Sequence record: NC_011356 | Length of the DNA stretch: 54,896 nucleotides | Direction: 5' to 3' (one strand) | DNA from: Enterobacteria phage YYZ-2008 | In this document: piece by piece, positions 12,001 to 15,000 of the stretch | Position numbering within the stretch: position 1 is the first letter of the stretch | Layout of the letters: each line of letters starts with the position of its first letter | Program-made: the position numbers

Positions 12001-15000
12001 ATCAATCCACAGGAGTAATTATGACAAAACGTCGTAAGAAATACCAGGAAAAAGAAGAGATTCGACACCCTGATTCACCTGAGGGATTAGTGGTAGCCGC
12101 AGCAAATAACAGGGCGTTCGCAGAGCGCCTTGTTGGTGTTTACAGACTAGCCAAAGCAGGAGTGAAACATGGGCGTCGTTAAGTTAGCTGATTACAGGCC
12201 TCAACTGGAGGTCGTGGAGCATCGCGTGGCAGATACCGAAGATGGTTTCATGCGCGTTGCTAACGAGATTACCGACAGTCTGCTGATGGCTGATTTAACC
12301 GTCCGGCAGTTGAAGGTGATGCTCGCTATCATGCGCAAGACATACGGATTCAATAAGCCGATGGATCGACTCACAAACACGCAGATAGCAGCCATGACAG
12401 GTATTCATCACACTCATGTTTGCGCTGCCAAGCGCCAGCTTATTGAGCGTAAATTCCTCATTGCTGATGGCGTGAAAATCGGAGTGAACAAGGTGGCTTC
12501 TCAGTGGATTAGCCAGGACAGCTTAACATTAGCTAAAACAGCTAATAAAACATTAGCCAAGTCGGCTAATGGGTATAAGCCAAGTCAGCTAAACACAAAA
12601 GACAATATACAAAAGACAATAAATACAAATACCCCCTTACCCCCTAACGGGGATGGCGATGGGCAGGTTAAACCTGAACGTCGCAAGGCAGAACGAATCG
12701 ACTACGAATCCTTCCTGAACGCCTACAACACCGAAGTCGGTGACAGACTTCCACACGCTGTTGCGGTCAACGAGAAACGAAAACGCCGCCTGAAGAAAAT
12801 TATCCCGCAACTGAAAACGCCAAACGTGGACGGTTTCAGAGCGTATGTCAGGGCGTTTGTGCATCAGGCCAAGCCGTTTTACTTCGGAGACAACGACACG
12901 GGCTGGACGGCAGATTTTGATTACCTGCTGAGGGAAGATTCGTTAACGGGAGTTCGGGAAGGGAAGTTTGCAGACAGGGGGATTGCATGAGACAGGATAT
13001 CGAAGCTAGCGTTATCGGTGGCCTGCTGATTGGTGGATTAACTCCAACCGCCAGTGACGTTCTGGCAACGCTGGAGCCGGAAGCGTTTTCAATTCCGCTC
13101 TACCGGAAAGCCTTCGAGGTTATTCGCAAGCAGGCGAGAAACAGAAACCTAATCGATGCGCTGATGGTTGCCGAGGCGTGCGGAGAGGAGCATTTCACGT
13201 CAATCCTGATGACCAGCAAAAACTGCCCGAGTGCCGCAAACCTGAAGGGATATGCCGGAATGGTCGCGGATAACTATCACCGCCGTCTGGTGCTGGAAAT
13301 CATGGATGAAATGCGTGAACCAATCCAAAGCGGAACCATCGACGCATCGAGTCAGGCGATGGATGAACTTGTAAAGCGTCTTTCAGCCATCAGAAAGCCC
13401 CGTGACGAGGTTAAACCTGTACGGTTAGGGGAAATCATCACTGACTACACTGACACGCTTGACAGGCGTCTGAGGAACGGAGAAGAGTCAGATACCCTGA
13501 AGACCGGAATCGAAGAGCTTGACGCTATCACCGGAGGGATGAACGCAGAAGACCTGGTGATTATCGCCGCTCGTCCTGGTATGGGGAAAACCGAACTGGC
13601 GCTGAAGATTGCCGAAGGTGTGGCAAGCCGCGTTATTCCTGGTTCTGACGTCCGGCGCGGGGTATTGATTTTCTCAATGGAAATGAGCGCATTGCAGATT
13701 GCAGAGCGAAGCATTGCCAACGCCGGGAGGATGTCGGTTAGCGTACTGCGAAATCCTGCATCGATGGATGACGAGGGCTGGGCACGTGTTGCTAACGGCA
13801 TGAGTCAGCTTGCAGATTTGGATGTATGGGTAGTCGATGCTTCGCGGTTATCGGTCGAAGAAATACGCTCAATCGCAGAACGGCATAAGCAGGAAAATCC
13901 AAACCTGTCACTCATCATGGCGGATTATCTTGGCCTGATTGAGAAGCCGAAAGCAGACCGCAACGACCTCGCAATTGCTCACATCTCCGGAAGCCTGAAG
14001 GCGATGGCGAAAGACCTGAAAACACCGGTTATCTCCCTGAGTCAGCTTTCGCGCGATGTTGAGAAGCGACCAAACAAACGCCCGACAAACGCAGATTTGC
14101 GTGATTCAGGAAGCATTGAACAGGACGCAGACTCAATCATCATGCTCTATCGGGAAGCGGTATATGATGAGAACAGTAGCGCCGCGCCATTTGCTGAAAT
14201 CATCGTGACGAAAAACCGTTTTGGCTCGCTTGGTACAGTTTACCAGCGGTTCTGTAACGGACACTTTGTTGCATGTGACCAGGATGAAGCCAGACAGATT
14301 TGCACAGCATCAAATGCACCTGCTGCGCGTGGCAGACGATATGCACAAGGGGCTGACGTATGACCATCTACATCACTGGGCTAATAACAGGCCTGCTGGT
14401 AATCGCAGGCCTTTTTATTTGGGGGAGAGGGAAGTGAACGATAGCTACCGACAGTTTGAAAACTGGTGGTCAAAAGACAAAAGCCAGTTCACGGGAGACG
14501 ATGAATTAAAAGAGTTTGCCTGGGTGATATGGCAGGCATCGCGCTCTGCTATTGAACTGGATATCGACTGGCCCGAATCGAATGACGACCTTTGGAAAGA
14601 TGGTGAAGAAGGTGCTTATGCGATGGGTTATGAGGATGGGCGTGACAAAACGGTAATTGCAGTAATGAAAGCCATCAGGGCCGCAGGAATCAAAGAAAAG
14701 AATTTCGATTAAGCAAATATCACTTCAATAAATCGCTTTTAAGGCATCACAATCGCTCTGTAGTGAGGTAAACGCGTGCAAGGCATGCCAATAAGTAGCG
14801 AGAATGAAAAATGCGTCAGAATGCGTTTGAGGAGGTTTTAAGAAATGAGTACGATAGCTGAGCTTGTCAGGGCTAATTTTCGTGAAGAGTTGGTGCGTTG
14901 GTATCGGTATCGTTCATCGTCCAGTTTGCCGCTTGATGAGTTGTATGAGCATTCACCTGCCGCACGACGCTATCCGCGTGACCGTGTTCTTCGACGGTTG

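Follow-up and report, generated by a model that had tools for sequence, protein, structure and literature searches.

A gp53-family small gene between oop and the O-type replication initiator gene of Enterobacteria phage YYZ-2008

Phage lambda has no protein gene between cII and the replication initiator gene O, a point made in the original prediction for this locus and borne out both by comparison with lambda and by the literature, in which lambda is without the orf (Hayes et al., 2012; PMC3349717). In the window (the whole 54,896-nt stretch of Enterobacteria phage YYZ-2008 that was analyzed, record NC_011356), a small open reading frame (ORF) fills this interval. Is it a gene, and if so, what might its product do beside the initiator of replication? 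The explanation that we favor overall, and regard as quite probable, is that the ORF is a genuine coding gene of the gp53 family, which would be expressed with the O module and would encode a basic, helical protein.

The small gene and its family

The features that define the locus are as follows.

11692..11988, + strand: cII gene, the upstream neighbor (Phage_CII, E 3e-31; PHROG 191)
12011..12016, + strand: Shine-Dalgarno (SD) sequence AGGAGT of the small gene, 5 nt 5' of its ATG, assigned from the sequence and its alignment to lambda
12021..12182, + strand: small protein gene of the HK97 gp53/Sf6 gp42 family (PHROG 1331), 53 codons plus TAA
12169..12990, + strand: O-type replication initiator gene (Phage_rep_O), which shares its first 14 nt with the end of the small gene

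According to the window sequence and its ORF listing, the frame begins with an ATG at 12021, stays open through 12179 and ends with a TAA at 12180-12182. The original prediction had placed the ORF correctly at 12021-12179, but had given it 52 amino acids, whereas there are 53 codons including the initiator Met. Its further description agrees with what was found: the ribosome-binding site (aggagt) is a good one, the ORF fills the cII-O interval and runs into the start of O, and the product is basic, with 14 Lys and Arg against 6 Asp and Glu residues and a pI of 10.7.

The ORF had also been described as unannotated, which public records contradict. The small gene is already known as a member of the HK97 gp53 family, and it has been discussed as the "orf" between oop and O: the layout "cII-oop-orf-O-P" has been described, with HK97 gp53 homologues named and phage Nil2 included (Hayes et al., 2012; PMC3349717). 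The protein has 100% amino-acid identity to HK97 gp53 and HK629_048, is identical to the Sf6 gene 42 protein, and matches PHROG 1331 (E 1.4e-37) over residues 1-53 on profile positions 1-53 of 53; the function label of this PHROG is "unknown function." The family occurs in 95 phage records, including Sf6 gene 42, ES18 gp58, and epsilon34 gene 49, which together with HK97 gp53 have the same or nearly the same 53-aa sequence and the same location after cII/oop, with a 14-nt overlap with an O-type gene. A gene of this type is annotated in phages Nil2, 1717, and Stx2a_WGPS, each with 99.9% identity to the window here. PGAP lists the ORF as a "hypothetical protein" in 571 out of 5426 complete genomes of E. 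coli, and most related phage records give it the same label. The window copy shows no substantial difference from the HK97 gp53 family and is one more member of it. The value of this result is mostly corrective, in that the ORF is properly labeled a hypothetical protein of the gp53 family and should not be presented as a discovery.

Searches beyond the family returned little. The ORF matches no NCBIfam model and no Pfam model at E ≤ 0.01, including that of DUF2740 (PF10872), and no PADLOC entry; a profile search of PDB sequences with the family gave a best E of 5.6, which is meaningless. Among 1.84 billion representative proteins, a profile search recovered 24 relatives only, every one of at most 84 aa, with no fusion to a larger domain. 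Literature searches for experiments on a gp53-family protein found nothing functional: those on HK97 gp53 gave only unrelated proteins also called "gp53," and those for DUF2740 and for the gp53 peptide string returned nothing. The "orf48" of a Nat Commun 2025 paper (gnarl1) was considered as a gene of the same slot and rejected, as it is a library number.

Evidence for a coding gene

By itself, the length of the ORF is within chance expectation, as 203 ORFs of 53 aa or more begin with an ATG in the window, and 53 random codons are free of stops with P ~0.07. The ORF rises above chance because it is conserved, with a codon pattern of purifying selection. The frame is intact in 17 of 17 Enterobacterales loci (from Edwardsiella, Trabulsiella, Yokenella, Enterobacter, Citrobacter, Chimaeribacter, Serratia, Rahnella, Brenneria, and others) at 57-100% identity, and the indels among homologues are all in frame, of 3 or 6 nt. 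Over the central 30 codons, pS is 0.67 and pN 0.15 (pN/pS 0.22), and variable columns number 16 at first, 15 at second, and 30 of 30 at third codon positions. Of the other five frames, four have pN/pS values of 1.2-3.1 and are interrupted by stops in most or all sequences. The exception is a reverse frame in which the wobble position falls on that of the forward frame; its pN/pS is 0.31, and stops occur in it in 9 of 16 sequences. An alignment of 33 proteins contains 6 invariant residues and many more that are nearly so. Conservation in related phages had been proposed as a check on the ORF, with absent synonymous-site conservation counting against it; the survey of relatives and the comparison of synonymous with non-synonymous sites both came out in favor of coding.

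Two further elements lie inside the ORF.

12108..12134, + strand: conserved mRNA hairpin AACAGGGCGUUC-GCA-GAGCGCCUUGUU, spanning codons N30-V38, from folds
12158..12162, + strand: SD AGGAG of the O gene, inside the C-terminal KAGVK codons of the small gene and 6 nt before the O ATG

Could there be no gene at all, but a frame left open by chance in a spacer kept for such DNA or RNA elements (pO, the hairpin, the ribosome-binding site of O)? Chance often produces ORFs of this length, as noted above, and real non-coding elements do overlap the ORF. However, a frame open in all 17 divergent loci with in-frame indels only, the three-base periodicity of the variation, and the behavior of the alternative frames (the reverse frame at 0.31 being the one with a value below 1) speak against it. 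This explanation has already been tested and is disfavored, to the point of being extremely improbable. The comparative pattern shows the ORF to be a genuine protein-coding gene, and the gene is very probably translated.

The hairpin is conserved as well. Among 16 homologues, 88% of cells are paired, the pair 52-66 is GC in 6, CG in 5, GU in 4, and UG in 1, and RNAalifold predicts the same hairpin independently. Synonymous recoding yields a less stable hairpin in 14 of 16 sequences. Conservation of the hairpin extends beyond what the peptide needs, and its G-U pairs indicate the mRNA strand. The pN/pS ratio is about 0.21-0.22 alike within and beyond the hairpin. An intrinsic terminator was considered for this structure and judged weak: the U-tract after the stem is broken in the window and missing from several homologues, and the terminator scan made no call. 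At the 3' end of the ORF, synonymous divergence drops, pS being 0.40 vs. 0.67 in the central codons.

The oop-O interval as a mosaic slot

Three elements upstream of, or at, the start of the ORF are common to lambdoid phages.

~11932..12010, - strand: predicted oop-like antisense RNA, overlapping the 3' end of cII, with two stem-loops of which the second is an intrinsic terminator
11983..12028, no strand: lambdoid "boundary" block (cII stop, 5' half of oop, SD, ATGACAAA), from alignment
12018..12026, - strand: extended -10 of pO, TGTCATAAT, read from the sequence and identical to lambda; function by homology only

The original prediction had set the ORF where lambda has the OOP RNA region. Instead, an oop homologue is retained directly upstream of the ORF and not replaced, judging from a predicted minus-strand transcript of ~77 nt with two stem-loops that overlaps the 3' end of cII exactly as lambda oop does; it would run from ~12010 to 11932, and only its promoter overlaps the ORF. 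A terminator scan places the terminator stem at 11964-11937, followed by a U run, and the fold of -30.2 kcal/mol (z -4.1) has the two-hairpin shape of lambda oop. The 5' end was set by homology to lambda position 38675, and the HK629 record annotates the homologous stretch as oop. An Rfam scan of positions 11000-13000 (evalue mode) gave no match to the oop family; a hit of BSnc120 on the terminator stem was dismissed as chance, being sub-threshold (20.5 bits vs. a cut-off of 114).

In the window, the lambda oop RNA with its terminator and the -10 of pO are all kept in place, and the TGTCATAAT element includes the reverse complements of the start codon and codon 2 of the ORF, the first ~10 codons of which would carry the oop promoter on the opposite strand. 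A 33-bp conserved region common to oop and pO has been described (Hayes et al., 2012; PMC3349717). The -35 of pO, at ~12041-12047, lies in the ORF-specific part, is weak, and diverges from lambda (PMC3349717). Because a consensus promoter scan did not call pO, its function is assigned by homology only.

The boundary block is common to lambda, HK97, and VT2-Sakai, with 41 of 46 bases identical to lambda up to ATGACAAA; homology to lambda and VT2-Sakai stops right after 12028. The SD and ATG of the small ORF are thus homologous to the SD and ATG at which lambda O translation starts. In lambda, this ATG opens O directly, whereas in the window it opens the 53-codon gene and O follows 148 nt further on with an SD of its own. 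Sf6 annotates the equivalent of this block, at the start of the ORF, as boundary sequence bsq5.

The oop-O slot is found in three states: it is empty in lambda, holds DUF2740/Orf48 in P22, HK022, and VT2-Sakai, and holds gp53 here. Orf48 of P22 and HK022 is the same as H0097 of VT2-Sakai (DUF2740, PF10872; PHROG 1913). Like gp53, it has the start block of SD plus ATGACAAA, giving MTK..YQ(E/D)K, is of similar size (48 aa), and has a stop that overlaps the start of O; unlike gp53, it travels with a different O N-terminus. Distant homology between the two proteins was considered and rejected, since BLASTP aligns residues 1-11 only and hhalign gives a probability of 1.2%. The three states constitute a clean natural experiment on function.

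Mosaic junctions fall at the start of the ORF (VT2-Sakai-type phages) and ~30 nt into O (HK106, mEp234, Sf6-type O), and an identical gp53 occurs with unrelated O bodies of the HK97, Sf6, and ES18 types. The O N-terminal decapeptide MGVVKLADYR is conserved, and the body of O is variable. The helicase downstream of O is DnaB-like in most loci and T7 gp4-like in ES18. Such mobility would fit an accessory "cargo" gene unrelated to replication, which merely uses the expression signals of O; the oop-O junction would then be a recombination hotspot with conserved boundary sequences, where small genes for host takeover or counter-defense are swapped in and out. The three slot states, the lack of detectable homology between gp53 and Orf48, the junctions exactly at both ORF ends (with bsq5 at the start), and the movement of one gp53 among differing O and helicase types are all in its favor. 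However, neither end of the ORF is free: its start is overlapped by the oop promoter, and its end by the SD and start codon of O. The ORF is also without a promoter or terminator of its own, has no PADLOC match, and in none of 18 loci stands apart from an O-type gene. That the 14-nt overlap is rigid and that the O N-terminus is inherited along with the ORF speak for its integration with the expression of O. We see the cargo explanation as possible, but on the unlikely side.

Overlap with O and the possible role of the protein

The stop/start overlap in the window is ATGGGCGTCGTTAA, of 14 nt. The small gene overlaps an O-type gene in 18 of 18 loci, by 14 nt in 16 and by 17 nt in 2; HK97, HK629, Sf6, ES18, HK75, and the 17 genome loci all have this arrangement, which holds whatever lies upstream (4 loci have other upstream genes). 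The GGAG/GGGG block at the O SD is kept in 16 of 16 aligned family members. Because the small gene always overlaps an O-type initiator gene, the two are likely to be translationally coupled. Coupling may be dispensable, since O has a good SD of its own. A long-range sequestration of the O SD was considered; the sole pairing that RNAalifold predicts near this SD is a weak conserved 4-bp helix next to it.

The small gene would belong to the early genes of the rightward pR operon. A scan found no consensus promoter near it, so it would be co-transcribed with cII, O, and the helicase gene. Its translation would begin at the ribosome-binding site and ATG that serve O itself in lambda, and ribosomes finishing the small protein would be delivered to the start of O, because the stop lies 14 nt inside O and the O SD lies in the last codons of the small gene. 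The possibility that gp53 is a detached N-terminus of O was rejected by eye, as the alignment of the window O with lambda O begins at the N-terminus of the window O itself, and each of the two proteins reaches the RVAD/NVAD motif after ~19 residues.

An arrangement of this kind raises the question of whether the peptide matters at all, or whether the ORF is a translated leader in which the act of translation is what counts, ribosomes covering the pR transcript between cII and O, reaching O, and melting the hairpin. The conserved overlap with the O SD inside the ORF, the conserved hairpin, the ability of lambda to manage without the peptide, and the fact that a non-homologous ORF of the same overlap architecture can substitute are all consistent with a functionless peptide. 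On the other hand, purifying selection on amino acids is strong throughout the central part, where synonymous sites are near saturation, and a pure spacer would not keep the invariant and near-invariant residues seen in 33 proteins. A leader without peptide function is accordingly improbable.

The product would be a very basic 6-kDa protein in which a Lys/Arg-rich, disordered tail at the N-terminus precedes one long amphipathic helix. AlphaFold2, run with the 33-sequence alignment, predicts helices at residues 21-29 and 31-49 and an unstructured N-terminal stretch of 20 residues; with a mean pLDDT of 68, the model deserves moderate confidence. As to what such a protein does, we tentatively suggest, with reservations that outweigh our confidence, an accessory, dispensable factor that belongs to the O-type replication module and is made in step with O. 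Rather than through the variable O body, it could act through a partner shared by all O types: the decapeptide MGVVKLADYR, for example, or nucleic acid close to the origin, or a factor of the host for replication or proteolysis.

A more specific device can be imagined, in which the small protein and the hairpin in its own gene set the amount of the O initiator by feedback, the Lys/Arg-rich tail binding the hairpin or nearby mRNA and modulating the flow of ribosomes into the O start. The conservation of the hairpin beyond the peptide, its G-U pairs, and the rigid stop/start overlap make this compatible with the data, and we consider it very improbable. If true, it would be a previously unrecognized post-transcriptional control of replication in lambdoid phages, Shiga-toxin (Stx) phages among them. 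In Shiga-toxin phages, replication after induction sets the dosage of the toxin gene, so any factor that tunes O synthesis would be relevant. Apart from this, the residual interest of the locus is modest: a small protein under clear purifying selection in the most studied lambdoid regulatory region, with its expression tied to the replication initiator.

Several observations count against the accessory role. The pairing of one gp53 sequence with unrelated O bodies goes against a direct partnership with O. Lambda replicates without any gp53-like gene. The same slot can hold the unrelated DUF2740/Orf48, as would be expected of a cargo hotspot too.

As a lead only, lambda CIII, a 54-aa regulator with an essential amphipathic helix, may be an analogue of the small protein. 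The two are alike in size, in being early lambdoid genes, and in the (for gp53, predicted) amphipathic helix. Their genomic positions differ, and phage 1717, the closest annotated relative, annotates its own cIII elsewhere.

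The gene between cII and O

The window represents a lambdoid Shiga-toxin phage whose replication module is of the HK97/P22 type, and its Shiga toxin A-type and NanS-like esterase genes confirm it as an Stx-converting phage. The 801 bp around the small gene are 99.9% identical to the Stx2 phages Nil2, 1717, 2851 and Stx2a_WGPS4/6/8; with HK97 the identity is 97.3%.

Features of the window
296-1582, integrase
10565-11266, minus strand, CI-type repressor
11692-11988, cII, upstream of the small gene (Phage_CII, E 3e-31)
start at 12169, O-like gene, downstream of the small gene (273 aa; Phage_rep_O E 3.5e-32, PHROG 345)
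12987-14363, DnaB-like helicase
19887-20843, plus strand, Shiga toxin A-subunit-type gene (ribosome-inactivating-protein, RIP, domain)
21622-23472, plus strand, NanS-like sialate esterase gene

The CI repressor ORF as called mechanically (10565-11266, minus strand) opens with TTG and encodes 233 aa. Since cI in the equivalent region of phage 1717 is annotated as 654 nt, the true start in the window is probably an internal ATG.

According to both the sequence and a mechanical ORF list, an ORF at 12021 lies between cII and O behind an AGGAGT ribosome-binding site (12011-12016, 5 nt 5' of the ATG) and overlaps the start of O, as the original prediction held; the overlap is 14 nt (ATGGGCGTCGTTAA). 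Its length, put at 52 aa, has to be corrected: the frame runs from the ATG to a TAA at 12180-12182 and comprises 53 codons including Met. The product is basic (14 Lys plus Arg, 6 Asp plus Glu; pI 10.7). Nor is the gene novel, as had been implied, as it is an already known member of the gp53 family. The encoded protein has the same sequence as HK97 gp53 and HK629_048, and it matches PHROG 1331 (labeled "unknown function") over its full length (E 1.4e-37). It is annotated in the records of 1717, Nil2, the WGPS phages, HK97, HK629 and HK75, as well as in Sf6 (gene 42), epsilon34 (gene 49), and ES18 (gp58; "function unknown; similar to phage HK97 gene 53"). The gene is present in 95 phage records (tblastn) and in 571 of 5426 complete E. 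coli genomes (megablast), where PGAP labels it "hypothetical protein". Searches of Pfam, NCBIfam, PADLOC and PDB returned no relative of the protein. This enterobacterial lambdoid module also occurs in two genome records assigned to non-enterobacterial organisms, a "Bacillota bacterium" MAG (L004, JAEZIN010000021.1; small protein 100% identical) and "Chryseobacterium sp." (L007, CACSKA010000001.1); the probable cause is mis-binning or contamination, not a genuine host range.

Coding capacity and an internal hairpin

The length of the ORF is weak evidence by itself, so the case for coding rests on comparison with relatives; the window contains 203 ATG-initiated ORFs that reach 53 aa or more, and a run of 53 random codons would lack a stop with P ~0.07. 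A pattern scan using one genome per species yielded 17 loci with 57-100% protein identity, from Edwardsiella, Trabulsiella, Yokenella, Enterobacter, Citrobacter, Chimaeribacter, Serratia, Rahnella, Brenneria and Entomohabitans, among others. The frame is open in all 17, from an ATG with a GGAG/GAGG motif ahead. In a codon alignment of the 16 non-redundant sequences, indels are 3 or 6 nt long, and the central, gap-free 30 codons have a pN/pS of 0.22 (pN 0.15, pS 0.67). Four of the five other frames give values of 1.2-3.1; the fifth, which lies on the reverse strand and has its wobble position in register with that of the forward frame, gives 0.31 but contains stops in 9 of the 16 sequences. Within these 30 codons, all 30 third positions vary, as do 16 first and 15 second positions. 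Across 33 gp53-family proteins, 6 residues are invariant and 16 nearly so. These comparative data show the small gene to be a real coding gene, as had been proposed, and the synonymous versus non-synonymous contrast named as its test favors coding. That the gene is a leader whose peptide is irrelevant is improbable, and this selection speaks against it.

RNAfold predicts a 12-bp mRNA hairpin at 12108-12134 (plus strand), spanning codons N30-V38, which RNAalifold also predicts independently. In the 16 homologues, 88% of its cells are paired, compared with 38-47% in slid controls, and the inner eight pairs are nearly always kept. Pair 52-66 is clearly compensated (GC 6, CG 5, GU 4, UG 1), with Ala GCG facing Arg CGC/CGT, and Pro CCG and Ser TCT facing Arg CGG. 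Frequent G-U pairs point to the mRNA strand. pN/pS is 0.21 both within and outside the hairpin. Set against synonymous recodings, the natural sequence is the more stable one in 14 of 16 cases, and in about half of the cases it falls below the 5% tail. Because sequence relatedness inflates such counts, conservation of this predicted hairpin is suggestive rather than proven. A role as terminator is unlikely because a U-tract is poor or absent.

A start site shared with lambda O

Alignment of the window with lambda, HK97 and VT2-Sakai revealed a conserved block from the cII 3' end to CAGGAGT(A/C)ATTATGACAAA, which shares 41 of 46 bases with lambda; beyond it, neither lambda nor VT2-Sakai bears any further resemblance to the window. 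The ATG of this block is the start codon of O in lambda, whereas in the window the homologous ATG opens the small gene, which thus uses a start homologous to that of lambda O. As originally claimed, lambda lacks the small gene. The translation start of lambda O is experimentally validated.

Features of the minus strand at the conserved block
11932-12010, minus strand, oop-like antisense RNA (5' end at 12010 by homology; overlaps the cII 3' end)
12018-12026, minus strand, extended -10 of the predicted pO, TGTCATAAT

The oop RNA had been placed in the interval that the ORF fills; its homologue is retained next to the small gene, on the upstream side, rather than instead of it, as the HK629 annotation likewise shows. 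It carries an intrinsic terminator (stem 11964-11937), and its fold into two hairpins (-30.2 kcal/mol, z -4.1) is similar to that of lambda oop. The start codon and codon 2 of the small gene lie inside the predicted pO, since TGTCATAAT reads as ATTATGACA on the opposite strand. The -35 of pO is weak and falls within the ORF-specific part, in agreement with the distinct -35 regions described for P22-type phages (Hayes et al., 2012; PMC3349717); a consensus scan called no promoter at pO.

In VT2-Sakai, HK022 and P22 the slot is occupied by a 48-aa ORF (H0097/Orf48; Pfam DUF2740, PHROG 1913), which, like the small gene, starts from the conserved block and overlaps O. The two have only MTK..YQ(E/D)K in common, a stretch that also carries pO, and profile-profile comparison gave a probability of 1.2%. 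Lambda, Orf48-type and gp53-type phages thus define a slot with three states: empty, DUF2740 and gp53. A cII-oop-orf-O-P layout has been described, with the orf missing from lambda; HK97 gp53 homologues have been named as the alternative occupant, with Nil2 in the alignment (Hayes et al., 2012; PMC3349717). The small gene may instead be hotspot cargo with no relation to replication, a reading only slightly less probable than the replication role proposed below. The VT2-Sakai H0097 mRNA folds with a GC-rich central hairpin. H0097 (1922-2068 of locus L003) matches PHROG 1913, whose label "tail protein" seems mistaken for an ORF of 48 aa that belongs to the early operon and overlaps O.

Association with O and possible role

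The stop of the small gene overlaps the O-like start in 18/18 loci; the overlap is 17 nt in the two Rahnella loci and 14 nt in the other 16. The conserved C-terminal KAGVK codons of the small gene contain the Shine-Dalgarno sequence of O (AGGAG, 12158-12162), and synonymous divergence is lower at this 3' end (pS 0.40). The O N-terminus MGVVKLADYR, encoded by the opening 10 codons (12169-12199, plus strand), is inherited together with the small gene even when the remainder of O is of an unrelated type, as in the HK97-type ("PQLEVVEHRVAD...") versus Sf6-type ("...GMGYVSIHRQF...") bodies. Identity to HK106, mEp234 and HK629 breaks at 12199 (O codon 10), placing a mosaic junction inside the O gene and not at a gene boundary. 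The upstream genes, judged by eye, look CII/C1-like in most loci and differ in four (L006, L009, L016, L019); the gene 3' of O is usually a DnaB-like helicase, and in ES18 a T7 gp4-like primase/helicase. What the small gene is constantly paired with is thus the 5' end of an O-type gene, rather than cII or any one helicase.

The small gene would be transcribed from pR, its translation would begin at the lambda-O-type site, and it may be translationally coupled to O. We tentatively propose that its product could serve the O-type replication module as a dispensable accessory factor and act by way of some feature that all O types share. No functional study of the protein was found in the literature. 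An exhaustive profile search gathered 24 family representatives, each of at most 84 aa and free of domain fusions. An AlphaFold2 model built on the family alignment (mean pLDDT 68) predicts an unstructured, Lys/Arg-rich segment (residues 1-20) followed by two helices (residues 21-29 and 31-49). With a hydrophobic moment (muH) of up to 0.45, the C-terminal half is amphipathic.
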